The translations under genes and the position numbers were made by a program. Of a DNA stretch of 55,451 nucleotides, positions 2,821-53,833 are shown in pieces. The notes beneath the pieces are model-generated. The model was not told the origin of the DNA. It did no database searches and saw nothing but the letters and a program-made list of their open reading frames with translations. Numbering within the stretch: the stretch's first letter is position 1; the number at the start of each line of letters is the position of its first letter. The stretch is from positions 1-55,451 of the IMG/VR virus record IMGVR_UViG_3300045988_024504; one strand, given 5' to 3'. The DNA comes from a virus.

Positions 2821-3026
2821 TATAGGGGGACGTGCTCCACTTTATGTACACAATAGGCCTGTTATAAATATGGCTTTGGGTTGTCATTTTGTCCCCCATA
2901 GGCTCGTAAATGGCAGATTTTCAAGGATGTAATTAACGAGTTTGCGTGAAATTTTCGTTCATCAGAGCGTGACTTGTCAATTCGTCCCCTATTGGTGTGA
3001 TTGCACTCCATTTTCTGTACACGATA
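2821..3026. repeat. Origin-flanking repeats: two inverted iteron copies plus three GTCCCC(C)TAT(A/T)GG motifs
   Basis: Inverted iterons lie at 2834..2851 and 3004..3026. TTGTCAnnnnGTCCCC(C)TAt(a/t)GG occurs at 2881..2902 and 2975..2995, with an inverted core at 2821..2831. Confidence 0.7.
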
Positions 3027-3201
3027 GAACCGTCAGGTAGATTATAGGGCTTGATGGACGTTTCTTATTCAGCAAAAGAAGTTGTCGTTTTCCACAATCT
3101 TCCCATTAAAGAGAAGAAATTGTTGAAAATGTATCGTCGTCACTATTTGATGATGATTATTTATCTCTTGTTTATTTCTTGTTTATATATATAGTAAGAA
3201 C

Positions 3202-3307
3202 GTGTACAAAAAGTGGAGCATTGTGTACATAAAGTGGAGCATTGTGTACATAAAGTGGAGTGTATCGTGTACAAAAAGTGGAGTATCGTGTACAGAATGT
3301 GGAAGTC
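3202..3307 (+). repeat. Five tandem 20-23-bp iterons (GTGTACAnAAAGTGGAG...), oriV of the Rep_3-type replicon
   Basis: Units start at 3202, 3223, 3244, 3267 and 3288. An A/T-rich stretch at 3155..3200 lies immediately upstream. Partial copies at 3326 and 3345 overlap the rep promoter. Confidence 0.85.
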
Positions 3308-3338
3308 GATTGTTGAAAAATAATTGTGTACAAAATCA

Positions 3339-3367
3339 TTGACGTGTACACGATACAATGATATAAT
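3339..3367 (+). promoter_or_regulatory. rep promoter TTGACG-17-TATAAT overlapping partial iterons
   Basis: The -35 is at 3339..3344 and the -10 at 3362..3367. GTGTACAC lies in the spacer, which suggests autoregulation. Confidence 0.6.
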
Positions 3368-3392
3368 AGGGTGGAAGAAATGAGGTGATGCA

Positions 3393-4487
3393 ATGCCAGA
3401 ATTGACAGGGAACAACCTTGTCGAAAAGAGCAAGGCATTGGTTTGGGCGAAGTTTACGGACTACACAGCAGGCGAGCTTCGGCTGCTTGAGGTCTATCTG
3501 AGCCGTATCAATCCGAGAGACCCCGAAAGCTCTAACGTGTCGTTTACGCTGGCTGAATATTGCAAGCTGCTGGATTTGAAGCTAAATTCAAAGAACTTGA
3601 AGTCGCAGGTTAAGCACTTTTTGGGCAACGTGGTTTCAGTACCGCTGAATGCAGATGGAACAGAATATGTGATGTATCCGCTGTTCACAAAGGCAGAGGT
3701 CAAGTTCAATCGAGAATCCTTGTCCTATGACGTTTCAATCAACTGTAATCCTGACTTGCGGCCTGTGTTTTTCGACATTGCAAGAAGCGGCTACGTCAAA
3801 TACCGTCTGCGCTATACGATTGGGATGAAGCAGCAAGCATCTATTCTGATGTACAGCATGATTCGGGATTGGATGAATCGCTCTCTAACATCGAACAAGA
3901 TTGGTTTGAAGCAGCTGCGTGACCACTTGGGGGCAAACGATGCAAGTTATGACGACTTCCGGGCTTTACGCCGCAGAGTTCTTGAACCAGCAGTGGAAGA
4001 GATCAGCAATGTTTCAGACATTGTCGTTGACTTTGAGAAGATTTGCACAGGGCGAAAGGTCGTAGCGGTCGAGTTTCGATTCGGGTACAAATCCAAGCAG
4101 CCCGTCATAGATGCCGATTCTAGCGAGGTTGATTGTGAAGCGGATAATTCCAAGCCGGAAATCAAAAAAGCCACAAGAAAGCCCCGCACAAGCGGATACG
4201 AAGGGTACGACTGGTCTGTGTGCGATGCTCTATCCGTTCAAGAGTGCATCGCGGTTGCAAAGGTTGTCGAGGTAAAGATGATGGAAGAACACCCATCTAT
4301 CAAGCTGCCGAAGCGGAGAGATGCGGTCTATGATATCGTAAAGGCTGCGTGTGCGGATATTCTTTCAATCAACCGTGACCCTTGGCCTGACCATCCGAAG
4401 CGGTATCTGATTGGTAGCTTGAAGAAAGACGGCGCGATTGAAGAGTATCTTCCGGCATTTTATGAGATTGACGCACTGCAAAATTAA
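3393..4487 (+). CDS. Rep_3-like iteron-binding plasmid replication initiator, 364 aa
   Basis: The N-terminus NNLVEKSKALVWAKFTDYTAGELRLLEVYLSRI resembles the Rep_3 signature. GAGGTGA precedes the ATG. The gene is adjacent to the iteron array. Confidence 0.75.
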   Translation: MPELTGNNLVEKSKALVWAKFTDYTAGELRLLEVYLSRINPRDPESSNVSFTLAEYCKLLDLKLNSKNLKSQVKHFLGNVVSVPLNADGTEYVMYPLFTKAEVKFNRESLSYDVSINCNPDLRPVFFDIARSGYVKYRLRYTIGMKQQASILMYSMIRDWMNRSLTSNKIGLKQLRDHLGANDASYDDFRALRRRVLEPAVEEISNVSDIVVDFEKICTGRKVVAVEFRFGYKSKQPVIDADSSEVDCEADNSKPEIKKATRKPRTSGYEGYDWSVCDALSVQECIAVAKVVEVKMMEEHPSIKLPKRRDAVYDIVKAACADILSINRDPWPDHPKRYLIGSLKKDGAIEEYLPAFYEIDALQN

Positions 4488-4520
4488 TCAGACATAGAAA
4501 ATAAAAGAAAGAGTGATAAA

Positions 4521-5285
4521 ATGGCAAAAATCATAGCTGTCGCTAATCAGAAGGGCGGCACAGGAAAGACTACCACAAGCACCTGTCTGGCCGGTGCGTT
4601 GCAGTTGCTTGGCAAGAAAGTCCTGCTGGTGGACTGCGATGCCCAGTGTAATGCAACGGACACCTACGGTGCACAGACAGAGAACGTATGCACCCTGTTT
4701 GACGTGATGACCCGGCAAGGCACGGTCGAAGAAGGAATCCAGCACTGCGAAGCTGGTGACATTCTGCCGTCTGACAGCGCATTGAAGGACATTGACGAGC
4801 AGCTTGTCCGGGACATGGGCAAGAATTTCCGACTGCGAGAGGCCCTTGAGAGCGTGTCTAGTCAGTATGATTACATTGTGCTGGACACTCCCCCGCAGCT
4901 CGGTCTTGCGCTTGTGAACGCGCTGATCGCCGCCAACAGCATCATCGTGCCCATCACAGCAGACCGATACGCACTGGCTGGTCTGAGCCAGCTTTCTCAG
5001 ACTATCGGCGATGTTCGCAGATACTTCAATCCGACTTTGAAGATTGAAGGTCTGCTTCTGAACCAGTACAAAAGCAGGGAGAACCTGTCCAAAGAGGTCG
5101 TGGAGCAGCTTCCTGTGATTGCACAGAACATGGGCACAACCCTGCTGGATGTGAAGATTAGACCGTCTATGGGCGTTCGTAAGGCGCAGGCAGAACGGCA
5201 CAGCCTGTTTAGCGGTGACACGGCGAAGAGCACCAGTGCAGAGGACTTTAAGGCGTTGGCGCAGATGATTGCGGAGGGAAAATAA
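4521..5285 (+). CDS. parA: ParA/Soj-type partition ATPase, 254 aa
   Basis: It has the deviant Walker A KGGTGKTT and VLLVDCDAQ. The small ParA lacks an N-terminal HTH (type Ib-like). Confidence 0.93.
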   Translation: MAKIIAVANQKGGTGKTTTSTCLAGALQLLGKKVLLVDCDAQCNATDTYGAQTENVCTLFDVMTRQGTVEEGIQHCEAGDILPSDSALKDIDEQLVRDMGKNFRLREALESVSSQYDYIVLDTPPQLGLALVNALIAANSIIVPITADRYALAGLSQLSQTIGDVRRYFNPTLKIEGLLLNQYKSRENLSKEVVEQLPVIAQNMGTTLLDVKIRPSMGVRKAQAERHSLFSGDTAKSTSAEDFKALAQMIAEGK

Positions 5286-5287
5286 AA

Positions 5288-5500
5288 ATGGCTAAAAAGA
5301 AAACTGAAAATGTTGTGCGTCCAATTGCACATTGGGAACAAGCAAATTACAGCTATATGGACTTAGACAACGGCGGCGTACGAGTAAAAGTGGACGGTAT
5401 TGGTTGCTCAAACTGCATGGCGAAGTTTAGGAAAAATTTTATGTGGGCAATCAATTTCTGCCCTAATTGTGGAGCGCGAATGGGGGCTGTAGAAGAATGA
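5288..5500 (+). CDS. Zn-ribbon protein, 70 aa
   Basis: CSNC...CPNC pairs are present. The ORF starts 3 nt after the parA stop and overlaps the next start (ATGA). Confidence 0.6.
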   Translation: MAKKKTENVVRPIAHWEQANYSYMDLDNGGVRVKVDGIGCSNCMAKFRKNFMWAINFCPNCGARMGAVEE

Positions 5501-6069
5501 AATCAACCAGCAAAAAATCCTCAGGCTTGCTTGGCGGGTTTGATTTTCAGCCTATTTTTTCGGAGCAGACATTAAGCCGAAGCGTGCCAAAGGAAGAAGA
5601 AGTAAGCCAAGCAAAGCCGAACGAAGCCGAGCAAGCACAGATTAAGCCTAGTGAAGCCACAGACAGCCATGCACAGCCTGATGAAGAACAGTTAATCAGT
5701 ATTAAGCCAAAGCAAGCCAAAGACAGCGAAACACAGCCAAATAATGCCGTGGTAAGCGAAAGTAAGCCGAAGAAGCTGAAACAGGCGAGGGAAGTTCAAC
5801 GTCTTATCGAACAGGGCGATGTTCCCGGCGCACTTGCCGAAGCTGGCTTGACAAGGAAAAAAATCCCGATGCCGGAATCGCATCAGGGCGTTGCAAGCGG
5901 CGATGGCAAGCGTTCAAAGCGCATTACCATCCTTATGAGCGAGGAAGAGCGCAAGTACATCAACCGTGAAGCTAGACGGCATGGGATGACGATTGGACAG
6001 TTCGTGTACGCTCTGGCGGTTGCAGCGGCAGAGGGAAAGATTGAGTTGGAGGATTTCTTGGAGGATTGA
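5497..6069 (+). CDS. Ribbon-helix-helix DNA-binding protein, candidate ParG/omega-type centromere binder (MobC-like RHH also possible)
   Basis: The C-terminus is KRITILMSEEERKYINREARRHGMTIGQFVYALAV. The N-terminal half is a 10-aa repeat. The gene is coupled to the parA operon. Confidence 0.6.
   Translation: MKSTSKKSSGLLGGFDFQPIFSEQTLSRSVPKEEEVSQAKPNEAEQAQIKPSEATDSHAQPDEEQLISIKPKQAKDSETQPNNAVVSESKPKKLKQAREVQRLIEQGDVPGALAEAGLTRKKIPMPESHQGVASGDGKRSKRITILMSEEERKYINREARRHGMTIGQFVYALAVAAAEGKIELEDFLED
5571..5770 (+). repeat. About 20 tandem 10-bp units with core (A/C)AGCC, candidate centromere array inside a CDS
   Basis: AAGCC starts at 5574, 5604, 5614, 5624, 5644, 5654, 5704, 5714 and 5764. CAGCC starts at 5664, 5674 and 5734. 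All are in one 10-bp register. Confidence 0.7.
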
Positions 6070-6122
6070 GGTATGTCGTGAAACACGATATACCTGTAAC
6101 CTGTATCTTCCGGTATTAGGTG

Positions 6123-6151
6123 TTGACTTTTAAGCACACAAATAGTATACT
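6123..6151 (+). promoter_or_regulatory. Promoter TTGACT-17-TATACT
   Basis: The -35 is at 6123..6128 and the -10 at 6146..6151, upstream of the small RHH ORF. A 12-bp imperfect inverted repeat lies at 6068..6094. Confidence 0.5.
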
Positions 6152-6181
6152 TAATGTGCGCTCAAAAGTGGAGGTGAACGC

Positions 6182-6355
6182 ATGAGTGCAAAAATGGGAA
6201 GACCAAAGCTGGAAAACCCGAACAGTGTTCGCACAAGCGTCCGTTTGGACGTGAATACTGACAAACAGCTTTCGGATTATTGCGAAAAAAACGGCATTTC
6301 TAAGGGAGAAGCCGTTCGTGAAGCTGTCCAGCAATGGCTTGAACATCAAAAATAA
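6182..6355 (+). CDS. CopG/Arc-type ribbon-helix-helix protein, 57 aa
   Basis: Read manually: MSAKMGRPKLENPNSVRTSVRLDVNTDKQLSDYCEKNGISKGEAVREAVQQWLEHQK. GGAGGTG lies 5 nt upstream. Confidence 0.6.
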   Translation: MSAKMGRPKLENPNSVRTSVRLDVNTDKQLSDYCEKNGISKGEAVREAVQQWLEHQK

Positions 6356-6489
6356 AAAATCCCCTAAACTGTTCGTAACTTGGCGGTCACCGGCAGTTTA
6401 AGGAATTACACTCCATGCGATTATGGGTGATAAATCCATTATATCATCTTCATAGTTGCATTACAAGCAAGATTTTTGTGGTAAAGCCA

Positions 6490-7353
6490 ATGAACATTCC
6501 AGCAACGAAAGAAGAGATTCTCGAAAATTTCAAGCAAAATAGCAACGGCCGTCCGCTCAACAAGGATGATTATGAGATTGCGGAAGCGTTATCTCGAATC
6601 ACTTACAAGGCGTATGAGGTCGGAATGGAAGATGCTAAACAGTTGTATATGGAGGATATGATGGATAACAAGAGATGTAACGCACTTCACGTTTTTAAGA
6701 ACAAGACCTTTGGTCAGCTCCGCACGATTGAAGAAGATGGTAAAATTCTTTTCTGTGCTTCTGACGTGGCAAAGGCACTTGGCTATACCAATGCACCGGA
6801 TGCAGTAAAACGCCATTGTCGGTATACTGTAAAACGCAGTACACCTCACCCGCAAGCAAAAGATAAGATGATTGAAGTAACTTTCATCCCAGAGGGCGAT
6901 GTTTACCGTCTTATCACCCACAGCAAGTTGCCCGGCGCAGAGAAGTTCGAGAGTTGGGTTTTCGATGATGTTCTTCCGTCTCTCCGCAAGAATGGCTATT
7001 ACAGCCTTGCCCCGCAGGAGAACAAGCCCGACACGCAGGACGATGCAATCTTGCAAGTGCTGATGAAGAACACGGAAGTCCTACAAGCCATCGTTCAGCA
7101 AAACCAGCAGATTATGATTGCTCTTACCAACCTGTCTGTCAACGATGCAAAGCACACGATGGAGATTCAACCTTACACTTCCCATCAGGGGCAGAAGGGT
7201 GACGGCAAACGTAGCAAGCGAATCACAATTCTTATGAGCGACAGCGAGCGGACGTTCGTTACGAGAGAAGCACGCAAGCACGGATTCACGGCAGGGGAGT
7301 ACATCTACAACCTGTCCGTTGCAGCATCGAAAGACCAGATTGACTTAGGATAA
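6490..7353 (+). CDS. Bro-N (antirepressor-type) domain protein with C-terminal RHH paralogous to 5497..6069
   Basis: The Bro-N signature is FGQLRTIEEDGKILFCASDVAKALGY...VYRLITHSKLPGAEKFESWVFDDVLPSLRKNGYY. The C-terminus is KRITILMSDSERTFVTREARKHGFTAGEYI. The start is uncertain (the track gives 6415). Confidence 0.75.
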   Translation: MNIPATKEEILENFKQNSNGRPLNKDDYEIAEALSRITYKAYEVGMEDAKQLYMEDMMDNKRCNALHVFKNKTFGQLRTIEEDGKILFCASDVAKALGYTNAPDAVKRHCRYTVKRSTPHPQAKDKMIEVTFIPEGDVYRLITHSKLPGAEKFESWVFDDVLPSLRKNGYYSLAPQENKPDTQDDAILQVLMKNTEVLQAIVQQNQQIMIALTNLSVNDAKHTMEIQPYTSHQGQKGDGKRSKRITILMSDSERTFVTREARKHGFTAGEYIYNLSVAASKDQIDLG

Positions 7354-7444
7354 CTCCGAAAAAAGCTAGAGGATAGAACAGGCAGATATCGCCCATCGTT
7401 AGGAGATGTGGGAATTGTCGCCCCACCTAGCTTTTTCAATAGTA

Positions 7445-10734: not shown

Positions 10735-10808
10735 TAAAAAATCCCCCGCTTTGCCTATAAAGTACCCCGCGTGGAATGCAGGGCTTCGGCAAAGCAGGGG
10801 ATTTTTTT
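10735..10808. terminator. Long bidirectional hairpin terminator
   Basis: The arms aatcccccgctttgcc / ggcaaagcaggggatt match at 15 of 16 positions. An A-run lies on one flank and a T-run on the other. Confidence 0.55.
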
Positions 10809-31088: not shown

Positions 31089-31166
31089 TGGTGCTACATA
31101 ATGGATTTGAACCAATGTATGCTCGGATATGAGCCGAGTGCTCTAACCATACTAAGCTAATGTAGC
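31089..31166 (-). tRNA. tRNA with anticodon CAT (Met, or Ile2 if lysidinylated), CCA encoded
   Basis: Hand-folded structure: acceptor gctacat/atgtagc, D arm gctt..gagc containing GG, anticodon stem ctcgg/ccgag with loop ctCATat, T loop ggTTCAAATcc, 3' ACCA. Confidence 0.85.
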
Positions 31167-33569: not shown

Positions 33570-34802
33570 TTATTCTCCAGCTTTGAAATTGTAAATCGGC
33601 TTAATGTGTTTTACAATATCAACTGTTGGGGAGATTGCGTTGATAATTTCCTGCGCTGGCTTATATGCCATCGGGCATTCATCCAATGTGGATTCATCGG
33701 CTGACGTAGTATAAATTCCGTTCATTTGCTTTTGGTATTCCTCAACGCTGAATGCTTTTTTAGCCGCTGTTCTGCTATATAATCTGCCAGCACCATGCGG
33801 AGCAGAGAAATTCCAATCAGGATTGCCCTTGCCAACACAGATAAGGCTTCCGTCTCTCATATTAAGAGGAATAATCAGCTTCTCACCATCTCTAGCAGAT
33901 ACAGAGCCTTTTCGGATAATATCATCCGATTCATCAATATAGTTATGAACGGTTTCAAAGAAGGACGCATAGGTCAGCATAGAATTGATTCCAACACCAT
34001 CTAAAATAGTGTGCATAATTCTCGCTCTGTTCATCCTCGCAAAAGCCTGACAAATTCGCATATCATTAAGGTAAGAATCACGTTCTTCGCCTTCAAGATA
34101 GCAAAGCTCATTCGGAATATCAGGGAACTGAACATCCAATTCTTTGATTTTTTGCGAGATTTCCTGTTCACGGCCTTGCTCTTTCAGTTCTGCAATCAGA
34201 CGTTCCGTAGCTTCTTTTCTTTTGTTCTTTCCTTTAATATTTGAGATAGCTACGTTTTGATGATACTCTGCGACCTGCTTTCCAAGATTTCGGCTTCCAG
34301 TATGGATAACAAGGTACTGGTTTTTTTCTTTATCTTCGTCCAGCTCGATAAAATGATTGCCGCCGCCCAAAGTACCCATGCTGCGAAGAATCCAGTCAAT
34401 ATTATGTAGGCTATCTTTGCATTCAAGCTGGCTAAGGAAAGAATCCGACATTTTCTGCGATTCGTGAACATTCATTCCAGCCGGGACACGTTCTCTGATT
34501 ACTTTGTCTAACTTTTTTGGGTCGATGTGTTCAATTCCAAGTTCAGCGACAAGCATTCCGCAACCAATGTCCACGCCTACAATATTCGGAATGATTTTCT
34601 TGCCCAAGTTTGCCGTAAACCCAATTACGCACCCGGAACCAGCATGAACGTCTGGCATAATGCGAATTTTGCAGCCATCAACAAAGCTCTGATTGCAAAG
34701 CGTCAAAATCTGCTCAGACGCTTTGTCTTCAATATTGTCCGTGAACACCTTTGCGGACGCATATTTTCCATCAATCGTTTTCAATGTATTCTCCTTTCTC
34801 AT
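33570..34802 (-). CDS. rtcB: RtcB RNA 3'-phosphate/5'-OH ligase
   Basis: RIMPDVHAGSGCVIGF...GVDIGCGM...GGGNHFIE...HTGSRNLG...PHGAGR are the RtcB metal and GMP-histidine motifs. An alternative TTG start is at 34784. Confidence 0.9.
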   Translation of the reverse strand: MRKENTLKTIDGKYASAKVFTDNIEDKASEQILTLCNQSFVDGCKIRIMPDVHAGSGCVIGFTANLGKKIIPNIVGVDIGCGMLVAELGIEHIDPKKLDKVIRERVPAGMNVHESQKMSDSFLSQLECKDSLHNIDWILRSMGTLGGGNHFIELDEDKEKNQYLVIHTGSRNLGKQVAEYHQNVAISNIKGKNKRKEATERLIAELKEQGREQEISQKIKELDVQFPDIPNELCYLEGEERDSYLNDMRICQAFARMNRARIMHTILDGVGINSMLTYASFFETVHNYIDESDDIIRKGSVSARDGEKLIIPLNMRDGSLICVGKGNPDWNFSAPHGAGRLYSRTAAKKAFSVEEYQKQMNGIYTTSADESTLDECPMAYKPAQEIINAISPTVDIVKHIKPIYNFKAGE

Positions 34803-35150: not shown

Positions 35151-35186
35151 AGCAGCGGCCTGTGGTGGGTCGCTGCTTTTTTATTT
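35151..35186. terminator. Hairpin at the 3' end of the recombinase gene
   Basis: The stem is agcagcg / cgctgct, with a T-run on the plus strand. Confidence 0.35.
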
Positions 35187-35798
35187 TTCTTCTTTGTTGG
35201 CATACTTGCGTGTGGTGGCCGCATCAGTGATGCCATATTTTTCACGATACTTTTTGACCGTACGCCAGAACGTAGCGGACTTCAACCCAAGTTCGTTCAT
35301 CATAATCTTTGGCGTGGTTTTTCCGTTCTGCCAGTCGTTATAGAGCTGCCGAAACTTCTCTTCGTCCACTTCTACAGGTTTTCTGCCTTTATATTTGCCT
35401 TCTGCTTTTGCGATTTCGATTCCCTCCTTCTGCCGTGCCAACATTGTTTCACGTTCCAGTTGTGCCAGAGCTGCAAACACAGTCAGCATAAATTTTCCGT
35501 TAGGCGTAGAAGTGTCGATGTTCTCTTTCTGGCTGACGAACTTGACGTTCTTTTTTTCAAGTTCTTCAACGATTTCCAGAAGGTCTTTCGTGGAACGAGC
35601 CAGACGGCTGAAACTCTCAATCACAAGAGTATCGCCCTCACGAACAAACGCCAGCATCTCTTTCAACTGCGGGCGATCAGTGTTCTTTCCGCTCATTTTA
35701 TCAATGAACACCTTTTCAACGCCAAGCTGCTCCATAATAACTTCCTGACGAGCCGTGTTTTGTCCGGCTGTCGAAACTCTTACATACCCAACTTTCAT
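35181..35798 (-). CDS. Small serine recombinase (resolvase/invertase family), 205 aa
   Basis: MKVGYVRVSTAGQNTARQ contains the catalytic Ser motif, followed by DTLVIESFSRLARS. The C-terminal HTH is TTPKIMMNELGLKSATFWRTVKKY. Confidence 0.9.
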   Translation of the reverse strand: MKVGYVRVSTAGQNTARQEVIMEQLGVEKVFIDKMSGKNTDRPQLKEMLAFVREGDTLVIESFSRLARSTKDLLEIVEELEKKNVKFVSQKENIDTSTPNGKFMLTVFAALAQLERETMLARQKEGIEIAKAEGKYKGRKPVEVDEEKFRQLYNDWQNGKTTPKIMMNELGLKSATFWRTVKKYREKYGITDAATTRKYANKEEK

Positions 35799-35815: not shown

Positions 35816-35870
35816 CTATCACAGATTATATCATATTTTGATAGTACTGTCAATAGAATTTTGATAGTAC
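35816..35870. repeat. Candidate recombinase binding sites (res-like) overlapping the recombinase promoter
   Basis: The 13-bp direct repeat ATTTTGATAGTAC occurs at 35835..35847 and 35858..35870, with CTATCACAG at 35816..35824. The core TATCAAAA resembles Hin/Gin half-sites. Confidence 0.5.
35825..35853 (-). promoter_or_regulatory. Consensus promoter TTGACA-17-TATAAT of the recombinase gene
   Basis: On the minus strand the -35 is at 35848..35853 and the -10 at 35825..35830. Confidence 0.7.
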
Positions 35871-35925: not shown

Positions 35926-36660
35926 TTACATTTGAATCGCTACGATTTCCCACGAAGAATAATTGGAAAATCCAGAATAGGGGTGAATTTCAAAGTTCTT
36001 CGTCTCTCCCGGTTGGATGTCCAAGACATAATCAATATCTCCGCACACGGGAACTTCTTCACCGTTCTCATCTTTCATCTTATACAGAACGATGACCTTT
36101 GCGTTTGTCTTGTATGCGCTGTTATTAGTCACTTTTCCGGTGAATCTTGTTTCATAACCACTACCACGCTTTGAAGTATTGGTGACAGCCAGTTCTCCGG
36201 ATCTTAAAACTTCTTTTCCAGCACTCGGCTGATAGTTATAGTCCTGAGCCGAAACAGACATTTCGATACCAGCTGGGATAGCTCCGTCATACTCGTATGT
36301 AAAGTATCCAGCATACCAATAAGAATCATTTTCCGCAACCCAGTCCAAATATTCATCGTCTGTTTTGATTACGGAGCCATCCTCTGCAACGACTGCAATT
36401 TCAATATGTGGAAACCATGCTGCAAGATTTTTGTTGGTATTCTCGATTTCAAGAGCATAAGAAATATAAATCGTGCTACCATCACGCCACGCATAAAACC
36501 CATGGTTCTTAATGCCTAACGGTTCATACTGCGTTGCATTTGTCTGCTCAAGTTCAATAAGACCAGACCATTCATCAGGCTTTGCAGTTGCCATTGCGCT
36601 AATAGGCATAGCAAGCATCATAGCCGCTGCTAGAGCCGCCGCAATGATTCTCTTTCTCAT
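35926..36660 (-). CDS. Secreted protein with signal peptide, 244 aa
   Basis: MRKRIIAAALAAAMMLAMPISAMATA is a signal peptide. The beta-rich remainder is not recognised. Confidence 0.7.
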   Translation of the reverse strand: MRKRIIAAALAAAMMLAMPISAMATAKPDEWSGLIELEQTNATQYEPLGIKNHGFYAWRDGSTIYISYALEIENTNKNLAAWFPHIEIAVVAEDGSVIKTDDEYLDWVAENDSYWYAGYFTYEYDGAIPAGIEMSVSAQDYNYQPSAGKEVLRSGELAVTNTSKRGSGYETRFTGKVTNNSAYKTNAKVIVLYKMKDENGEEVPVCGDIDYVLDIQPGETKNFEIHPYSGFSNYSSWEIVAIQM

Positions 36661-36690
36661 TTTTGATTCTTCCTTTCTTTGGCCAGAATT

Positions 36691-36834
36691 TTATATAACG
36701 TTTGAAATACCATGTGCTATAAGATACACACCAAAAGCCAAAAGAGCGGCGCCCACAATGATGATCCATATCGATGCAGCTATCTTTTCGTTCTTTTCGC
36801 GTCTTTCTTTATTCTTGTCATTCTTTTGGTTCAT
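36691..36834 (-). CDS. Small membrane protein, 47 aa
   Basis: Read manually: MNQKNDKNKERREKNEKIAASIWIIIVGAALLAFGVYLIAHGISNVI. AAGGAGGA lies upstream. Confidence 0.45.
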   Translation of the reverse strand: MNQKNDKNKERREKNEKIAASIWIIIVGAALLAFGVYLIAHGISNVI

Positions 36835-36989
36835 TGCATATTCCTCCTTTGTGATACCACAAAGCGATTATAGCACAATCTAGGCTCCGAAAGGGGTCTT
36901 TTTGTATTTTTTGGAATTTTTGGAGACTTGCACAATCAGATGGATGCCGTTTTGTAAAGGTGGGGTGGGTCTTTTTTATTTTTTCGGTG

Positions 36990-37250
36990 GTTGAGAGACT
37001 GACCGGGCGGGGCTGGGCGGCGGCTGTATGCCCCGCCGGTGTACCCTTGCACACTCCAGCGCCCCCGGACGTCCTACACATCACAGGCAGCAGCGCAGGC
37101 CGTGCCAGATGCAGGGCAGACCATGCAAGGCACGACACGCACGCCCGGACGCTGGACACGCTGCACCGGTCTGCACTCGATACCAGACAGACCGCGCCGG
37201 GCAGATCATACCGGCGGCGGATGCTGGATGGCGTTGAGCCCTTCTATTAT
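36990..37250. other. G/C-rich ORF-free block A
   Basis: Only Arg/Pro/Ala-rich spurious frames are present. It shares 10-15-nt blocks with 39086..39700 (cgataccagac, cacgcc(c)ggacgctg, accatgcaag). Confidence 0.6.
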
Positions 37251-37255
37251 GTGCA

Positions 37256-37275
37256 TTGTGATAGCTCTATCACAA
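37256..37275. promoter_or_regulatory. Perfect palindromic operator TTGTGATAG-CT-CTATCACAA
   Basis: The 9-bp arms are perfect. Related half-sites lie at 37306..37315, 37329..37340 and 37373..37379. Confidence 0.6.
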
Positions 37276-37356
37276 GCATGGTATATTGATAGCAATATGA
37301 ACAAATATCACAAGGATATTTGTTGTTTCTTGTGATAGTAAATTGCTATCTATCTA

Positions 37357-37385
37357 TTGACGTATAACCCTATTGATAGTATAAT
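37357..37385 (+). promoter_or_regulatory. Promoter TTGACG-17-TATAAT of the plus-strand cassette
   Basis: The -35 is at 37357..37362 and the -10 at 37380..37385. A TGATAG half-site lies in the spacer. Confidence 0.65.
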
Positions 37386-37438
37386 AAAGGCACAAACAAG
37401 AACAAACCACATTGAACCAAAACAGGAGGACAAAAACC

Positions 37439-38056
37439 ATGAAAAACAATAATATTCTTTTCCTTGAATGCCGCGGCTGCCCGTTCATGAAGGGCGACAA
37501 AATCGCAAAGCTTTCCGACGTTGGTAATTATCGCGTTGGAGTGTATAGCCATAGGATCGAAGCAAAAGACGGAAATAAATACATTCTTGAATTTGGCAGC
37601 TACGACAGAAAAGAAACCAAATACACCAACAGCCGAACCGGAAAGCCCTTGAAACATCCAAAGTGTGAAGTGGTGTTAGAAAATGCCCTGCACATTAGCA
37701 CGGAATACGAAACGCTTGATTCAAAAAATATCGGTTTAGCTTTTGCGAACTGCAAACTTGAAAAACAGATCCACGACAAAAAAGAATATCTTTTCACAAA
37801 GTCCGATATCTTAAAAGCAGTAAACAGCATTAGCAAAAAACAATATAACAAAATTGTGCTAGTATCAAATGAAAGCATTATAGACGCCATTCCAGAAATT
37901 TACAAACTTGGTGGATATCGGGAAAAAAGCATTCTTGACAGTCTTGTTGAAGTAAAAACAGAGCAATACACAAAAGAATATCATGTATATACCTTTATCG
38001 CCGAAAACGGAGACACGTTCAACTATGAAGCACTTAGCAAAAGAATAGTAGGATAA
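37439..38056 (+). CDS. Hypothetical protein, 205 aa (cassette gene 1)
   Basis: AGGAGGA lies 8 nt upstream of the ATG at 37439. The gene is A/T-rich. It has an N-terminal CRGC motif but no recognised domain. Confidence 0.7.
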   Translation: MKNNNILFLECRGCPFMKGDKIAKLSDVGNYRVGVYSHRIEAKDGNKYILEFGSYDRKETKYTNSRTGKPLKHPKCEVVLENALHISTEYETLDSKNIGLAFANCKLEKQIHDKKEYLFTKSDILKAVNSISKKQYNKIVLVSNESIIDAIPEIYKLGGYREKSILDSLVEVKTEQYTKEYHVYTFIAENGDTFNYEALSKRIVG

Positions 38057-38074
38057 AATGGAGGTTCTGAAAAA

Positions 38075-38170
38075 ATGATTACTCTTGATTTTTCCCAGTG
38101 GGCCGCCCTCTGGTACGTGGGCGGCATGATCTCCGGCGCACTCGTTATGATCGCTATTTTAAACAGCTAA
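38075..38170 (+). CDS. 31-aa single-pass membrane peptide (cassette gene 2)
   Basis: Read manually: MITLDFSQWAALWYVGGMISGALVMIAILNS. GGAGG lies 9 nt upstream. Confidence 0.4.
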   Translation: MITLDFSQWAALWYVGGMISGALVMIAILNS

Positions 38171-38187
38171 TAAGGGAGGGCATAAAA

Positions 38188-38451
38188 ATGACAGACTTGG
38201 AGCAAAAGTGCAACGAGTACCGCGAATATAAGCGGCTGGCCGAGCAGGCGGAGCAGATGCGGGACAGCCTGCGGGATGAAATCATTGCCATGATGCAAGG
38301 AGCGCCTGAGGTTGTCGCAGGCGCTTGCAAGGTGATGTATAAGGACGTGCAAAGCGTCCGACTTGACAGCAAGCTTCTCAAGACGCTGCACCCGGATGTA
38401 TACGCAGAGTGTAGCAGCAAAACCAGCTACAAGCGTTTTAGCGTGGTTTGA
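38188..38451 (+). CDS. Hypothetical protein, 87 aa (cassette gene 3)
   Basis: GGGAGGG lies upstream of the ATG at 38188. The N-terminus is a coiled coil. Confidence 0.6.
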   Translation: MTDLEQKCNEYREYKRLAEQAEQMRDSLRDEIIAMMQGAPEVVAGACKVMYKDVQSVRLDSKLLKTLHPDVYAECSSKTSYKRFSVV

Positions 38452-38464
38452 TGGAGGTTTAACG

Positions 38465-38731
38465 ATGATTTACCCCGATAAAGTATATATTCCTGTTGTG
38501 CGTGGGTGCAGCGTGTGGAGCGTCTCAGAGATCGACACGGCAAAAGCCAAAAAGACACCCGGCTATATCGTACCCGGCTATATCCAGTATAACGGCGGTT
38601 TATACAGCGCTGGCAACGTCTTTTTGTCCGCTGCTGATGCGTGGGACTGGATCCACCTTTTTCGCAGCTATCGCGGCAAAGTGTACACCGCCGCCGAGAT
38701 CGGCAGTATCCGGGAGGTAAACACAAAATGA
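38465..38731 (+). CDS. Hypothetical protein, 88 aa (cassette gene 4)
   Basis: GGAGG lies upstream of the ATG at 38465. Confidence 0.6.
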   Translation: MIYPDKVYIPVVRGCSVWSVSEIDTAKAKKTPGYIVPGYIQYNGGLYSAGNVFLSAADAWDWIHLFRSYRGKVYTAAEIGSIREVNTK

Positions 38732-38807
38732 TATTTTCATGTATCCTATTTTTCTTCTGGTTCTTTGCGGCACTGTTCAAAGCGTCCAAGTGAGGAGGAA
38801 ACAAAAA

Positions 38808-39008
38808 ATGACTGAAATTGAATCCCGTGACGGTAGAACGTACTTTTTAAACGGTAGCGGAAAAGTGGAGTACATCACAGGCACAAGCGGCCGGGCCTAT
38901 CCTTATACGTATGACCAAAAATACAACGCATGGACAAACCGCAGCGGCTGCCTGTCTTATAAGTACCTCCGGCGGCTTGAAAATGCCGGAAAACTTTTCT
39001 TCAACTAA
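38808..39008 (+). CDS. Hypothetical protein, 66 aa (cassette gene 5)
   Basis: GAGGAGGA lies upstream of the ATG at 38808. Confidence 0.6.
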   Translation: MTEIESRDGRTYFLNGSGKVEYITGTSGRAYPYTYDQKYNAWTNRSGCLSYKYLRRLENAGKLFFN

Positions 39009-39015
39009 CATCCAC

Positions 39016-39045
39016 CCCCGCCCACGCTGGCGGGGCTTTTCTTTT
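39016..39045 (+). terminator. Rho-independent terminator 1 of the cassette
   Basis: The stem ccccgcc / ggcgggg is followed by CTTTTCTTTT. Confidence 0.8.
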
Positions 39046-39081
39046 GCCTTGCACCTGCTGAGAGTGCAGGGCTTTTATTTT
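39046..39081 (+). terminator. Rho-independent terminator 2 (tandem)
   Basis: A 9-bp stem gccttgcac / gtgcagggc is followed by TTTTATTTT. Confidence 0.8.
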
Positions 39082-39085
39082 GCCC

Positions 39086-39700
39086 TGCTGCAATACAGCC
39101 ACATACAAGCGTTTACAGTGCGTTTTGTTTCCGTCCATGAAGTTATACCACCCACGCCACAAAACAGCACACAGGGCTTTACAGGGGCATTCCATACGAT
39201 TTGGCCTATTCCACCGCCCACGATACCAGACCGGCACAGGCGGCTATAATACCGCCTGCGCTACGCTGGAGCGTATCACAACGCCGTAACACCTCCAGCA
39301 TATACCAGATACAAGCGCCACGCCGGACGCTGTGCAACTCTGCACAGCCGCCCTATTATAATAAGGTATATAAGGGTGCAGCGGTGTGCCCCTGTTATGG
39401 ATCCATGCCAGACAGCGCAGCAGATCGCAAACCATGCAAGCCCGGCGGGGGTCAGCTCCTACCGTCTGCGGATCGCTGGCAAGTGCTGCACCCGGCGCAC
39501 TTGCTAAGGGGTTAGCGTCTCCACCTGTACAGGGGCAGCCCAGCGGCTGGAGTCCTGGCACCGGTCAGCAGTCAGGGTGCACCGGGTCAGCCTGGCGCCC
39601 TCCACCCGGCGGGGCAGTCCAGCGGCAGGGGCGCGGCGGGCGGCGCGGAACCATTGACGACTACCGCCGCATCTCTTTTCGGGCTTTCGCCCGATAACCA
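39086..39700. other. G/C-rich ORF-free block B (about 600 bp), many local hairpins
   Basis: No credible ORF on either strand. Hairpins include caggcgg/ccgcctg, ctgtgca/tgcacag, gcaagtgc/gcacttgc and tcgggc/gcccga. It shares sequence blocks with 36990..37250. Confidence 0.55.
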
Positions 39701-39712
39701 ATAGAGGTCAGC

Positions 39713-39933
39713 AATAGTCGCAGCGTTCCGGCTGGAATAGTCGTAGCCAATAGTCGTAGTTTCTCCGATAAAATAGTCGTGGAATAGTCGTAAAGTCGTC
39801 AGACGACCAGTTTTTGAAAGTCCTATATATCGTATAGTAACGGACAGTACGCTCATAGTCACAGAGCAATAGTCGTAGTGTTTTCTTGCGAATCATCGTC
39901 AAATAGTCGTATATTTTTTGTGTGAAATAGTCG
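39713..39933 (+). repeat. Eight same-orientation AATAGTCG(T) iterons, candidate origin of the RepA_N-type replicon
   Basis: Copies start at 39713, 39736, 39749, 39772, 39783, 39868, 39902 and 39926. Further copies lie at 40276, 41026 and 41108, flanking or inside the rep gene. Confidence 0.8.
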
Positions 39934-40121
39934 TTTGCCTTTTAGAGAAAGAGAGGTGCGATAGTTGCTAAGTCATCCGACCACCTCAAAAATCACTTCT
40001 CGTTCCAATTTCGCATAATATATTCCTCCGCTAGTTATATCCATTTCGTATAATAACCGTACTTATTATAATATACAGATATAGTTACTCCCGATAATCA
40101 CGGATTATTTCGTATAGTAAC
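39830..40121 (+). repeat. Second repeat family TCG(T/C)ATA(A/G)TA.. in an A/T-rich stretch (likely unwinding region)
   Basis: Copies lie at 39830..39841, 40011..40022, 40046..40057 and 40110..40121. Confidence 0.6.
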
Positions 40122-40389
40122 TCGTACCAACCTATTCTGTCTGTTCCTGCTCGATTTAATTCCCAGCAATGCGCTATGGTATTCTAAACAATCCATAGCA
40201 TTCTACTAGGAATAGCAATGCAACATTTCTACATATTTAACCGACCGCAAAATAAAGTCAATTCTCCATCTTTGGAATAGTCGCATACCCTCCGCAAATA
40301 CGAACCTGACGAAAGATGCTGGTCACGGTCTTCTCTTCTGGCTAACGGTATAGCTTTTGGAGATAGAGGGTTATAGGGGGAAAGAACCT

Positions 40390-41094
40390 TTACAAGCGAT
40401 TGAACTCTGGTTCGCTATACTGCTGCTTTTCCTGTTCCTTGTCAATCCACATATCAGCAAAGGCCTTCCAGTTTGTTATAGGCTTTCCGTTCTTGGTCAT
40501 CCAACCTGTTCCCTCATAGTAGTTCATAAACCTGCTGGCAAGCCTGTTCTCACATCCAGCATCCAAAAAATACTCGCTCACATCCTCGAAGTCCGGCGTG
40601 ATGGCGTTCCCATCGGGCGGGTCGCCAGCTTTCTTAATAACTTTTTTTCTTTTCTTTTCTTCTATATTAAGGAGGTGAACGATTGTTCCCCTCACAGGTG
40701 AAGCATCGTTCCCCTCAAAGGTGAATGATTGTTCACCTCGCTTTTCGCTATTTGACGATTCTTTTGGCACTTTGACGTATATCTTATCGGGCTTGTTCTT
40801 CCCTTCACGTTTGCGCTCGATCAACCCGGCTTCTTCCAGCTCTTTCAGAGACTTCTTGACCCATCGCTCCGTGAATCCAGTATCGGTAGCAAGGTCTTTG
40901 ATGGGATACACGATGTATACTCGTCCTAGTTGGTCAGCAAACTTTCCGCTTTTGCTTGCCCTCTGTGACGACCTTGCACGATTGAACAGGTAAACGTAGA
41001 CAATTTTCTCTGTTGGACTAACGTCAATAGTCGAGAGGAATCGAGGGTAGACCATGTACCCATTGACCTTTGTGTCGGCTGTCATGTATTCCAT
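40390..41094 (-). CDS. RepA_N-like replication initiator
   Basis: YMVYPRFLSTIDVSPTEKIVYVYLFNRARSS...GRVYIVYPIKDLATDTGFTERWVKKSLKELEEAGLIERKREGKNKPDKIYV resembles the RepA_N winged-helix N-terminal domain. AGGAGGAG precedes the ATG at 41094. Confidence 0.7.
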   Translation of the reverse strand: MEYMTADTKVNGYMVYPRFLSTIDVSPTEKIVYVYLFNRARSSQRASKSGKFADQLGRVYIVYPIKDLATDTGFTERWVKKSLKELEEAGLIERKREGKNKPDKIYVKVPKESSNSEKRGEQSFTFEGNDASPVRGTIVHLLNIEEKKRKKVIKKAGDPPDGNAITPDFEDVSEYFLDAGCENRLASRFMNYYEGTGWMTKNGKPITNWKAFADMWIDKEQEKQQYSEPEFNRL

Positions 41095-41235
41095 TTTCTC
41101 CTCCTGCAATAGTCGTAGACCTCTACAATGCGCTCACAGCCCCGTAGAGCAGTGCCAGATTTGTTTTCTGTGTTCAGTCGATAAGTTTTTGCTATCTGAC
41201 GCTAAAAGCGTTTGTAGGGCTTCTGTGCGCGTATA

Positions 41236-43450: not shown

Positions 43451-43702
43451 TTAATCCTCTTTGTAACGGCTGTTCCACCGGCTGATGATTTCTTGTCGTC
43501 CGTCTTTTTCGTCATACGGTGACAAAACGCCATCTTCATCAAAGCTATAGTAAGCGCTATTGCTCATTGATGCATTATTACACTTTTCACACAGAATCAT
43601 CCATGTTGTGTGGTATCTTCTCTTTGAATCCACTTGATACAATCCATCGTGATATAACGTAGGAATAGACCCGCAGAACGGGCATCTCTTAAGTTCTTCC
43701 AT
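43451..43702 (-). CDS. Lar-family restriction-alleviation-like protein
   Basis: LKRCPFCGS...CEKC...ISRWNSR matches the Lar family pattern (CPFCG, a second Cys pair, WN.R). Confidence 0.6.
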   Translation of the reverse strand: MEELKRCPFCGSIPTLYHDGLYQVDSKRRYHTTWMILCEKCNNASMSNSAYYSFDEDGVLSPYDEKDGRQEIISRWNSRYKED

Positions 43703-48681: not shown

Positions 48682-49557
48682 TGTTATCCTCCATCAAATC
48701 GTCCATGCTCAACTGACCACTGATGTTGTCATCTTCCATCCACCAGCGGAACACGTCCATGCCGGTCTGCCAGTCGCACGGCAAACCTTTTGCTTTTCTG
48801 ACATCAAGCATTCGTTCAAACGCTGAGATGTACATTTTCTCGTAGGCAGGCCAGCGCATAAACTCACGCTGTCTGCCCCCCTACCAGCCATAGGACAGCC
48901 GATGCAACCAACGCGCTTCTGCCCTTCGCAATACAATGGATTGATAGGCAAGTGTTCGTTGTGCGTGTAGTCCCATACATCATCGTCAGACCAGTCCACG
49001 ATCGGATTGACGGTCATCTTGCCCTTGAGATTACAGGTCTCGAACAGTTGTCGCTTTTCATCGTTGTCTCCCATAAGGATGATGCGCTTTTCCTTGTCAC
49101 GATGGCTAAACTCCATCGTTCCACGGTTCTTCTTTCTGTTTGTTGATTCAGCCCAGCGAACGCCGGTAGCGATAAATCTATCGCGATCAGTATTTTCTTT
49201 GAGAACGGCACAACAATACCGCACAAGTCTTGTCGGCGGCATCAGCTTTTGCGGAATCAGCGTCCACATAGACACGGGCTTGTCCTTGTATCGTGGCATG
49301 ACGATGGAGCATTTGATTCCACGTTCTTCCATCGCCTTGAACTGTTCACGGATGAAATAGACCGTCTCCGGCGCATCTGCTGTGGTATGGCTGTTGACCA
49401 CCTCAAAGTTGATTCCTGCACGTTCAGCCAGAGCCACAAGCACCTGTGAATCCTTACCGCCAGAGTATGTGACCATCAGCGGTTTCTTGTACCGATGCTC
49501 GGATAGCCGTGCAGCGTCCTGCAACCGTGCGATAGCAAGCTGTTCCTTATCACTCAT
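48674..49557 (-). CDS. PAPS-reductase / PP-loop family protein, split by a G6 tract as read
   Basis: The PP-loop SGGKDS is present. As read, the ORF is 48709..49557. Adding one G at 48876..48881 joins it in frame to 48674..48859 (RQREFMRWPAYEKMY...). Confidence 0.7.
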
Positions 49558-50416: not shown

Positions 50417-50621
50417 TTTTTTCTCCTTTCAGCCAGTCGTTCAGCTTTGCCATGCAAGAGGGGCAAAGAAACGGTTCATCATAGCAATCGCAACTCCAGT
50501 AGTCCCATGCGTCATGCACGTTCTTGTCAACCAGAATCACGGCATTTGGCTTATGCCTACCCATCTCATCGGGCGGTTCAGGATTAAACACTTCACCGCA
50601 GCGGTCACATTTCATGCTCAT
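50409..50621 (-). CDS. Zn-ribbon protein, 70 aa
   Basis: CDRC...CPSC. Confidence 0.5.
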   Translation of the reverse strand: MSMKCDRCGEVFNPEPPDEMGRHKPNAVILVDKNVHDAWDYWSCDCYDEPFLCPSCMAKLNDWLKGEKSE

Positions 50622-51138
50622 GTTCTTTCTCCAATCTCTTTAGTAGCCCATCCACGTCATACCGCCAATGGACACGCAGCTTTTTTGCTTTGACCTCTAT
50701 CCCCTCTTGTTCTGCCCACTGCCAAGGGATGCTCTTCCGGCTCTCGTTGTAACGGAACGCTAGAACCTTGCTGGCAGGGATTGCAAAGGTGCGGTTGATC
50801 GCCCTGTAATTGACTATCACATGGGCAGTCTGACCGCCATAACCCATTGCTTCCACCATGTCAGTGATGTGTTTTTCCTTGCGGTACTTGCACTTTGCTT
50901 TGTCGTACTTGCCAAACACCTTTTCCAGAGGGATAGAGGGCGTTTCGATGGTTTTCAACTCAAACAGGTGGTTCATCGGGTATCGGTACACAAGGAAGTC
51001 GCAGATGTTGTCGATGGAAAACGACAGGTTCTCGTTGCCGCCGTAGTAGGTAGCAGCACTGTCTTTCAGCCGGTAGCACCACGCATCGGACGGGACGGAT
51101 GCCTTGAAGTCTGCCTCAAACTGCTTGCCGGTGTTCAT
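50605..51138 (-). CDS. RecU-like PD-(D/E)xK Holliday-junction resolvase
   Basis: GKQFEADFKASV...ICDFLVY...LFELKT fits the RecU-type G..fE / D / ExK arrangement. Confidence 0.55.
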   Translation of the reverse strand: MNTGKQFEADFKASVPSDAWCYRLKDSAATYYGGNENLSFSIDNICDFLVYRYPMNHLFELKTIETPSIPLEKVFGKYDKAKCKYRKEKHITDMVEAMGYGGQTAHVIVNYRAINRTFAIPASKVLAFRYNESRKSIPWQWAEQEGIEVKAKKLRVHWRYDVDGLLKRLEKEHEHEM

Positions 51139-53173: not shown

Positions 53174-53833
53174 TTACTCTCCTTTGTTATCCGGCTGAAC
53201 CGGGATGTTGTAATACTCACGGATGGTCTTGTCTACGGCGGCGAGGTCGTTCTCGATCAGCGGATCGTTGAACATTCCAAGAGGGGTTTTCACGGTGTCC
53301 ATCCCATCATTGCGAGTGCTGAACAGGTATCGCCCATCCTGTACAACGGTTTTTAGGACGATGGTGAAGTATCCTTCCACGCAGACCTTCTCGTCTAGCA
53401 TTTTCCCAACAGTCTTGAATTTTTCTCCACCGTTTTCTCCACATTCGCTGTGTCCGAAAAAGTAGACCACCACATCGTCCGGCAGCTCCTTCGCCCGCAT
53501 CAGTAGGGCGTTGAAGTTTGCTGCCATTTCGGTAAACTTCTGGTATCCAGCGACCTTTGCGTTCCGCATGAACTCGCCGGTCATAAGATAGGTGGCATCG
53601 TCAATGACGATGGACTTACGCTTTGCACTCCTAAGAACAATGTCGATTTTGGTATAATCGTCCATGTGTTCGCTTTTTTTATACTCACTCAGGATAAGAG
53701 TTTTCATCTTGCTTCGGAACGGCAGCGGCTTGCCAAGCACGTTGATAACCGCAACCTGTTCCGGGTCAAAGTTCCGAAGCGAAGCGGATTTACCACTGCC
53801 GGAGTGACCGTAGACCATTACTAATACTGCCAT
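53174..53833 (-). CDS. Sak4-like (AAA_24) RecA-fold recombination ATPase
   Basis: It has the Walker A GHSGSGKS and the Walker B SIVIDDATY. Confidence 0.7.
   Translation of the reverse strand: MAVLVMVYGHSGSGKSASLRNFDPEQVAVINVLGKPLPFRSKMKTLILSEYKKSEHMDDYTKIDIVLRSAKRKSIVIDDATYLMTGEFMRNAKVAGYQKFTEMAANFNALLMRAKELPDDVVVYFFGHSECGENGGEKFKTVGKMLDEKVCVEGYFTIVLKTVVQDGRYLFSTRNDGMDTVKTPLGMFNDPLIENDLAAVDKTIREYYNIPVQPDNKGE

Follow-up and report, generated by a model that had tools for sequence, protein, structure and literature searches.

We analysed a stretch of viral DNA of 55,451 nucleotides (IMG/VR record IMGVR_UViG_3300045988_024504, positions 1 to 55,451; this whole stretch is referred to as the window) and in it a plus-strand cassette at positions 37256-39081, which an original prediction made from the letters alone had described as a self-contained, compositionally foreign gene unit of a prophage. 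The cassette consists of a promoter embedded in short inverted repeats, six small open reading frames (ORFs) and two terminators (Table 1). It is located between the replication origin and the recombinase and packaging genes of a genome belonging to a family of human-gut, siphovirus-type phage-plasmids of approximately 55-60 kb. Comparison with related genomes revealed a universal, independently transcribed accessory operon, in which a conserved scaffold of small genes carries a shuffled cargo of ORFan genes, and the operator at its promoter is also present at the promoter of a regulator or recombinase gene.

Table 1. Coordinates of the features of the cassette, of the recombinase gene to its left and of the maintenance module (RBS, ribosome-binding site; HTH, helix-turn-helix; aa, amino acids)
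Feature	Position	Strand	Remarks
S1, TTGTGATAG-CT-CTATCACAA	37256-37275		operator/res-like array
S2, TTGATAG-N13-TATCACAA	37286-37313		operator/res-like array; half-sites 37286-92 and 37306-13
S3, TTGTGATAG-N7-CTATCTA	37330-37352		operator/res-like array; half-site 37330-38
S4, TTGATAG half-site	37373-37379		operator/res-like array; abuts the -10 hexamer
Sigma-70 promoter of the cassette, TTGACG-17-TATAAT	37357-37385	+	11/12 consensus matches
ORF1, 205 aa, slot A cargo	37439-38056	+	GGAGG-type RBS
ORF2, 31-aa single-pass membrane peptide, scaffold	38075-38170	+	GGAGG-type RBS
ORF3, 87 aa, scaffold	38188-38451	+	GGAGG-type RBS
ORF4, 88 aa, slot C cargo	38465-38731	+	GGAGG-type RBS
Micro-ORF, 21 aa, hydrophobic (MIFSCILFFFWFFAALFKASK), scaffold	38728-38793	+	ATG overlaps the ORF4 stop; GGAGG-type RBS
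ORF5, 66 aa, slot D cargo	38808-39008	+	GGAGG-type RBS
Two tandem intrinsic terminators	39016-39045, 39054-39080	+	-15.1 and -13.7 kcal/mol; hairpin and T-run
Left GC-rich ORF-free anchor	36869-37250		conserved boundary; 59% GC; 70-93% identity in most related loci
Right GC-rich ORF-free anchor	39081-39700		60% GC; adjoins AATAGTCGTA iterons
Small serine recombinase, 205 aa from ATG at 35798	35181-35798	-	Pfam Resolvase PF00239, E = 1.3e-45
Recombinase promoter, TTGACA-17-TATAAT	35853 to 35825 (region 35816-35869)	-	12/12 consensus
Cro/CI-type HTH proteins	968-1414, 2199-2792	+	plasmid-type maintenance module, 968-7353
Rep_3 plasmid initiator	3393-4487	+	maintenance module
ParA	4521-5285	+	maintenance module
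NikA-like (mobilisation protein) match	5467-6069	+	maintenance module; weak, below threshold
Bro-N protein	6415-7353	+	maintenance module

The promoter, the half-sites beside it, the two tandem terminators and the GC-rich flanks without ORFs (36900-37250 and 39009-39700, 59-60% GC) are all present as originally predicted, and both terminators are kept in 19 aligned relatives. Other parts of that description hold with amendments. The element announced as a perfect 20-bp palindrome, TTGTGATAGCTCTATCACAA, is unique in the window, where none is expected by chance, but it consists of 9-bp arms around a non-palindromic CT. The five predicted ORFs with their strong ribosome-binding sites were confirmed, but the 21-aa micro-ORF had been missed. 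An A/T-rich composition, ascribed to the whole coding part, is found in ORF1 (37.5% GC) and the promoter region (33%), whereas ORF2 to ORF5 with 47-54% GC are close to the window average. Finally, the genes had been regarded as the sole plus-strand genes between 7.4 and 55.4 kb; according to the gene calls of near-identical contigs this applies to approximately 28-48 kb, while unsupported plus-strand ORFs exist at 9.7-11.6 kb.

The GC-rich anchors are the conserved boundaries of a variable locus, the right one adjoining the iterons. That the flanks are mutual repeats resembling attachment sites or inverted repeats was ruled out, since they match each other only at chance level. They were also rejected as structured RNAs: the covariation term of RNAalifold was approximately 0 and the folding z-scores were between -0.7 and -0.95. 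A search of the flanks against Rfam gave nothing relevant, only sub-threshold matches over the terminators. The right flank contains a near-invariant, promoter-like AT-rich island (39353-39376, CCTATTATAATAAGGTATATAAGG) and an invariant hairpin at approximately 39683-39696 (CGGGCTTTCGCCCG).

To compare the locus among relatives, IMG/VR was scanned with the adjacent replication protein as query. This yielded 80 loci in genomes of 55-60 kb, in which that protein is 92-99% identical. The cassette locus was found between the same anchors in 75 of 87 sequences examined, and its content alone varies. These 75 loci, in which the region between both anchors could be delimited, were analysed further by calling ORFs supported by a ribosome-binding site and clustering them. 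Three mini-genes form a scaffold: ORF3 is present in 70 of the 75 loci, the micro-ORF in 63 and ORF2 in 62. The remaining genes fall into 68 clusters, among them singletons and some spurious calls, and more than 30 of these are recurrent families. They occupy four slots, one ahead of ORF2, one on either side of ORF3 and one behind the micro-ORF. Approximately 65 different gene orders exist among the 75 loci. ORF1 was detected in nine loci, ORF4 in ten and ORF5 in seven, and the exact arrangement of the window recurs in only two near-identical metagenome contigs. Two faecal-virome fragments in GenBank have the flanks and some small ORFs in common with the window, without ORF1, ORF4 and ORF5. 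The idea of a compositionally foreign unit acquired as a whole is thus not supported: the locus is at the same place in essentially all of the approximately 75 relatives, the scaffold is kept and the cargo alone is swapped.

The ratio of nonsynonymous to synonymous polymorphism (pN/pS) is 0.14 for ORF1, 0.20 for ORF2, 0.20 for ORF3, 0.15 for the micro-ORF (pS 0.68, pN 0.10) and 0.15 for ORF5, that is 0.14-0.20 with pS values up to 0.68, which indicates purifying selection. The high pN/pS value of ORF4 is an artefact of the gap-free comparison of two very divergent subtypes, into which its ten loci fall. In contrast to integron-type gene cassettes, which have an integrase with attI and attC repeats at their ends, no repeat family was found at the gene boundaries; the junctions are spacers of 13-20 bp containing the ribosome-binding site, or overlapping ATGA. 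Conserved cargo pairs were not seen in the 75 loci.

A consensus promoter of the cassette is present at every locus, but the repeats surrounding it differ, and at least 15 operator types can be distinguished. Most types have three copies of a 14-18-bp palindrome, located upstream of the -35 region, in the spacer between -35 and -10, and just downstream of -10. An association scan, in which all ORFs in the 8-kb flanks were compared with the operator type, picked small proteins of 73-117 aa, the genes of which lie immediately upstream of the serine recombinase gene. The operon comprising the small gene and the recombinase gene is on the lytic strand, 1.5-4 kb left of the cassette, and one of the small regulators scores as HTH_37 (Cro/C1-type domain). 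In the 53 loci with both regions, regulator clusters map one-to-one to operator types (adjusted Rand index 0.90) with two departures: at 70% identity the closely similar types A and N share a cluster, and type I is divided according to its two operator subtypes. The controls gave much lower values, namely 0.05 when the first cargo gene was compared, 0.02-0.14 with the alleles of ORF3 and 0.28-0.39 with portions of the recombinase. Neither the first cargo gene nor the alleles of ORF3, ORF2 and the micro-ORF show any dependence on the operator type. In types H, J and O, one recombinase C-terminus is common to all, and both the HTH protein and the operator differ. Moreover, in every type examined the promoter of the regulator itself carries the type-specific operator, placed between its -35 and -10 hexamers. 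Because regulator and operator covary and the same operator recurs at the regulator promoter, there is strong comparative evidence for an autoregulated repressor predicted to control the cassette promoter as well as its own.

Two other explanations for the operators were rejected. ORF3 is not an Aca-like autoregulator, since its alleles do not track the operator type and no HTH was detected in it. Likewise, the operator does not travel with ORF1: at locus L003 an ORF1 that is 94% identical is preceded by a different operator. Upstream of the small HTH gene, several operator types have in addition a conserved, long near-perfect palindrome (for example ACTATACTCTGTA-TTTACAGAGTATAGT at approximately 15170-15210 of L007; also in L003, L015, L058 and L064), the place of which is taken by a CCCTATTGATAGTAAA element upstream of the regulator operon in other operator types. 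The palindrome or the CCCTATTGATAGTAAA element could be the true res or crossover site.

The window belongs to operator type A. Its motif TTGTGATA occurs six times in the 55-kb window, with all copies within 36849-39281 and four of them within 82 bp. The shorter TGATAG core is not enriched over the window as a whole, the total of 31 copies being the number expected by chance; five copies are found at 37259-37379 (within 116 bp) and three at 35816-35867. S1, S2 and S3 are inverted pairs, the arms of which are 2, 13 and 7 bp apart; together they occupy 97 bp (37256-37352), and the TGATAG core is kept in all type-A relatives. The small HTH gene is missing from types A, N and E. They encode a distinct recombinase instead, with a length of 205-214 aa in A and N, while that of E has 248 aa and an additional Recombinase domain. 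The recombinase variant tracks these three operator types. The protein encoded in the window has the catalytic serine motif VGYVRVSTAGQ and matches the DNA invertase family phrog_125 (E = 3e-68). Its promoter contains TACTATCA twice and TGTGATAG, so that three TGATAG/CTATCA sites with the same core as at the cassette promoter flank and overlap it. Similarly, in type E the E operator lies within the recombinase promoter. In type N, the half-site at both promoters is TGGTAG, not TGATAG, and the C-terminal recognition helix of the recombinase differs between the two types as well (SATFWRTVKKY versus PTTFWRKVKEY). Since the core is common to both promoters and half-site and helix change together between A and N, we infer that the serine recombinase itself is the TGATAG binder in the window, acting in trans at its own promoter and at that of the cassette.

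Repression by a serine recombinase has precedents. Tn3 resolvase represses tnpA and tnpR, and the beta recombinase is autoregulated. The res site of Tn3/gamma-delta is 114 bp long with three recombinase dimers bound, that of Sin has 86 bp, and Sin bound at a site overlapping a promoter represses that promoter (PMC2428073). The window resembles these systems in combining a small serine recombinase with an array of inverted repeats serving as dimer sites, unequally spaced over a length in the range of 86-114 bp, and in the overlap of the sites with promoters, at which the recombinase would also repress. By analogy, the TGATAG array may be a res-like site and the recombinase both a resolvase and a repressor. 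However, a distance of 1.4 kb separates the array in the window from the recombinase gene, the operon that it would control is an unrelated accessory one, the recombinase promoter has a set of sites of its own, and in sister lineages the binder would be a separate small HTH protein. The DNA between the two TGATAG clusters has the same orientation in the type-A relatives checked (L009 and L063), so that an inversion of this segment was rejected.

The products of the cassette had been left unrecognised in the original prediction, and for ORF1, ORF2, ORF4 and ORF5 no known family was found here either. With the exception of ORF3, the six products had no meaningful match in Pfam, PHROGs, NCBIfam or PADLOC; sequence searches of the PDB found nothing, and an HTH was found in none of them. 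The nine to ten commonest cargo families of the relatives likewise had no meaningful match in Pfam, PHROGs or PADLOC. The cargo proteins have a median length of 76 aa and are soluble, with a mixture of acidic and basic members.

ORF1 is a two-domain ORFan protein with the invariant motifs LExRGC and SDVGNYR. At 90% identity its family falls into 92 clusters, and at 50% it has 329 representatives. No member bears the name of a function (JGI/NCBI: 'hypothetical protein'), and distant members are located in other mobile elements. The N-terminal domain of approximately 135 aa occurs alone, with other C-terminal extensions or as a fusion with DUF3849, behind which it is placed in representatives P0279 and P0299; a literature search for DUF3849 found nothing relevant. 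The AlphaFold2 (AF2) model of ORF1 is confident (predicted local distance difference test, pLDDT, 93.7; predicted TM-score, pTM, 0.88), and Foldseek found no match to it in PDB and BFVD (best E-values 0.4 and 0.06, TM-scores below 0.2). The invariant polar residues R12, G13, S26, D27, G29, N30 and R32 suggest an active or binding site.

ORF2 has a grand average of hydropathicity of 1.27. ORF3 matches positions 273-360 of the 372 positions of phrog_434 ('RecE-like recombination exonuclease', E = 1.8e-11). By tblastn it corresponds to the C-terminus of Listeria phage gp47, the gene of which adjoins a RecT gene, and also to ORFs of approximately 92 aa in cluster-K mycobacteriophages (ZoeJ gp57). 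Judged from these alignments, its C-terminal half is homologous to the C-terminus of RecE/YqaJ-like phage exonucleases. The AF2 model of ORF3 (pLDDT 63.5) is confident for a long N-terminal helix only (residues 3-35). For ORF4, 44 homologue clusters were found, none of them named and at least some on contigs sized like the genomes of this phage family; ORF4 and ORF5 have neither a family nor a PDB match.

The element carrying the cassette is a siphovirus-type genome with genes for capsid, SPP1-type portal, terminase and tape measure. Further minus-strand genes encode RtcB, a DnaB-type helicase and a RepA_N/DnaD-like initiator with AATAGTCGTA iterons. It had been taken for a prophage. Since Rep_3 and ParA are encoded in the maintenance module and no integrase was found among the window ORFs scanned, it is best described as a phage-plasmid, not as an integrated prophage. 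The sole clue to its host is the endolysin region, which has 81% identity with that of Faecalibacterium phage FP_Lugh and makes Faecalibacterium the probable host; searches against GTDB representative genomes and PLSDB gave no match. Literature on a Faecalibacterium phage-plasmid or on this phage family was also searched, and nothing relevant was found.

Several features outside the cassette are worth recording. Between cassette and recombinase, the minus strand at 35926-36834 encodes a 47-aa membrane peptide and a 244-aa putative lipoprotein with an FxLYD domain, both candidates for exclusion or surface functions. This stretch is mosaic in relatives, with alternative genes of 209-402 aa, and in some of them an extra plus-strand module, absent there from the window, is inserted between recombinase and cassette (54 aa, 58 aa and a Bro-N or pRha/ANT antirepressor of approximately 260 aa; L003 6082-7700, L091 6439-7784). 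The AATAGTCGTA iterons are located at 39733-40289, downstream of the RepA_N/DnaD-like gene (40390-41109), and at 41105-41121, just upstream of it; the gene itself contains three tandem 21-nucleotide repeats (40673-40739). This region is probably a lytic or second replication origin. The RtcB RNA ligase gene (33570-34802, minus strand) is beside the terminase gene, and a tRNA-Met gene is present at 31089-31166 (minus strand); together they could serve the repair or replacement of tRNAs cleaved by host anticodon nucleases. Two Rfam matches exceed the gathering score, a skipping-rope RNA (7362-7434, plus strand) and a DUF3800-VIII RNA (10740-10803, minus strand). The early operon on the minus strand encodes Lar-type restriction-alleviation, PAPS-reductase-domain, RecU-like and AAA_24 (Sak4-like) proteins (approximately 43451-43702, 48709-49557, 50605-51138 and 53174-53833); recognisable anti-restriction and recombination functions therefore sit outside the cassette.

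Based on these observations, we propose that the cassette is this genome's version of a hypervariable accessory operon at a fixed site, controlled by a lineage-private repressor and carrying cargo for establishment or counter-defence. We give this reading as a whole a probability of approximately 0.55; its structural and regulatory part taken alone we hold to be very likely. When the DNA enters a naive cell, in which there is no repressor yet, the promoters of both cassette and regulator would fire, and the cargo would be made in a burst. As the regulator accumulates, the cassette would be shut down to a low level. Repression in the steady state with a burst on entry is suggested because the strong promoter is embedded in operators that recur at the autoregulated regulator or recombinase promoter. 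The cargo would most likely serve establishment, either as counter-defence or in competition with related elements. Conflict genes are suggested by the extreme turnover of the cargo in a backbone that is otherwise 92-99% conserved. The original view of a self-contained, separately regulated accessory unit of ORFan genes was indeed borne out, and such diversity is typical of conflict genes. By contrast, the defence function considered at first gets no support from PADLOC, and small ORFan proteins without a match to defence hidden Markov models would seem to fit counter-defence or competition between elements better than defence. Private pairs of operator and repressor may keep a resident relative from silencing a heterotypic incomer, or from being controlled by it, in a manner resembling heteroimmunity.

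The locus may be compared with known systems. Conjugative plasmids have leading-region anti-defence islands and kil-kor-type regulons, the genes of which are repressed by plasmid-encoded global regulators and are transiently expressed on entry. Like these, the cassette contains accessory or establishment-type genes with strong translation signals; unlike these, it is carried by a phage-plasmid, its regulator is lineage-private, and single-stranded DNA promoters and recognised anti-defence families are lacking in it. The controller (C) proteins of restriction-modification systems are small HTH autoregulators with diversified operators, which divide them into control groups independent of each other. 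Those proteins act in cis on restriction-modification genes, whereas here the target is a distant ORFan operon. A further comparison may be made with the anti-CRISPR (acr-aca) loci of phages and plasmids, in which Aca proteins repress strong acr promoters so that a burst is followed by shut-off (PMC8633003). As in these loci, variable small ORFans are found beside conserved marker genes, and a strong promoter is under inverted-repeat operators of a dedicated repressor, the binding of which is deduced here from covariation. The differences are that the operon itself has no HTH gene, its regulator being encoded in trans on the opposite strand at a distance of 1.5-4 kb, alongside a serine recombinase; that the conserved genes encode two micro-peptides and a protein resembling the RecE C-terminus; that at least 15 operator specificities exist inside one phage family; and that no homology of the products to known Acr or Aca families was detected in the general libraries searched.

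Several points weigh against the proposed establishment role. We infer both the timing of expression and the function of the cargo from the architecture alone. The cargo had no match to known anti-defence families in general libraries, no dedicated Acr or anti-defence library having been searched, and a recognisable gene of anti-restriction type (Lar_restr_allev) is located elsewhere, in the early operon. The three cargo proteins of the window are basic (isoelectric points 8.8-9.4), unlike the DNA-mimic anti-restriction proteins, and the polar motifs of ORF1 look more like those of an enzyme or a nucleic-acid binder than like those of a simple inhibitor. With regard to regulation, the res-like array is separated from the recombinase gene by two other genes, at a distance of 1.4 kb, while classical res sites abut the gene, and a regulator encoded elsewhere in the genome might have escaped recognition in types A, N and E.

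More tentatively, the proposal may be extended: the three mini-genes could be homology anchors, between which dozens of ORFan conflict genes are shuffled by homologous recombination in an integron-like manner without attC. The lineage-private lock, in some lineages the plasmid resolvase itself, would then be a second, heteroimmunity-like layer that determines which of the phage-plasmids sharing a cell expresses its establishment or counter-defence genes, and ORF1 would be the first member of an enzyme-like family with a new fold taking part in this conflict.

The most serious alternative, although we consider it unlikely, is a classical moron of the kind known from lysogenic conversion, which would be continuously transcribed from the resident plasmid-prophage and provide superinfection exclusion or defence, the two membrane peptides included. 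The cassette is like phage morons in being an autonomous promoter-genes-terminator unit against the direction of the lytic operon, on the same strand as the maintenance genes for Rep_3 and ParA; its small membrane peptides are conserved, and an autoregulated repressor permits low steady-state expression. Against continuous transcription, several operators overlap the promoter, and they are operators of a regulator that is necessarily expressed in the plasmid state. The cargo is small and soluble and lacks PADLOC matches. Furthermore, the locus is universal in the phage family and is not an insertion showing presence or absence; a conserved scaffold with internal slots, a composition that is only partly atypical, and apparent repression also set it apart from morons. 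On this architecture we would favour the burst on entry followed by repression over a constitutive moron expressed from the lysogen.

It is improbable that the TGATAG array is primarily a res site for multimer resolution, with the cassette regulated as a by-product and itself no more than selfish cargo, or junk that is tolerated at a place prone to recombination. The three inverted pairs with their unequal spacers over approximately 97 bp, the dinucleotide at the centre of S1, a recombinase with the catalytic serine motif YVRVSTAGQ and the presence of plasmid maintenance genes would all suit such a site and agree with known res architecture (PMC2428073). However, in most lineages three equal palindromes are placed exactly on -35, -10 and +1 and track the small HTH protein, not the recombinase, which argues that promoter control is the conserved feature. 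In addition, scaffold and cargo genes are both under purifying selection, at variance with junk. A toxin-antitoxin or addiction module, in which ORF1 or the hydrophobic peptides would be toxic and a neighbouring small ORF would neutralise them, is very improbable: tight repression and small hydrophobic peptides would suit toxic products, but there is no family match, ORF1 is restricted to 9 of 75 loci with changing neighbours (the 31-aa gene is not called in L003 and L008), and the conserved pairing that such a module should leave in the cargo is not seen.

The locus combines known kinds of elements, an accessory island of the anti-defence type and control by a repressor or resolvase. What distinguishes it is the mini-gene scaffold, the approximately 15 pairs of operator and regulator, a recombinase apparently in the role of a repressor, its occurrence in abundant phage-plasmids of the gut, and the confidently modelled ORF1 fold without a match. 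The cassette may be a promising source of new phage counter-defence or competition genes. If the cargo indeed consists of such factors, a single locus would provide more than 30 uncharacterised protein families, among them ORF1 with a confident fold lacking a structural match. The phage-plasmid that carries them is very widespread in the human gut and probably belongs to Faecalibacterium, a clade with almost no known anti-defence biology. The approximately 15 natural, orthogonal repressor-operator pairs on one promoter design are a test bed for the evolution of specificity and possibly a toolkit for Clostridia genetics. Last, in some lineages a serine recombinase seems to have taken the place of the small HTH repressor, which would tie plasmid multimer resolution to the control of accessory genes.

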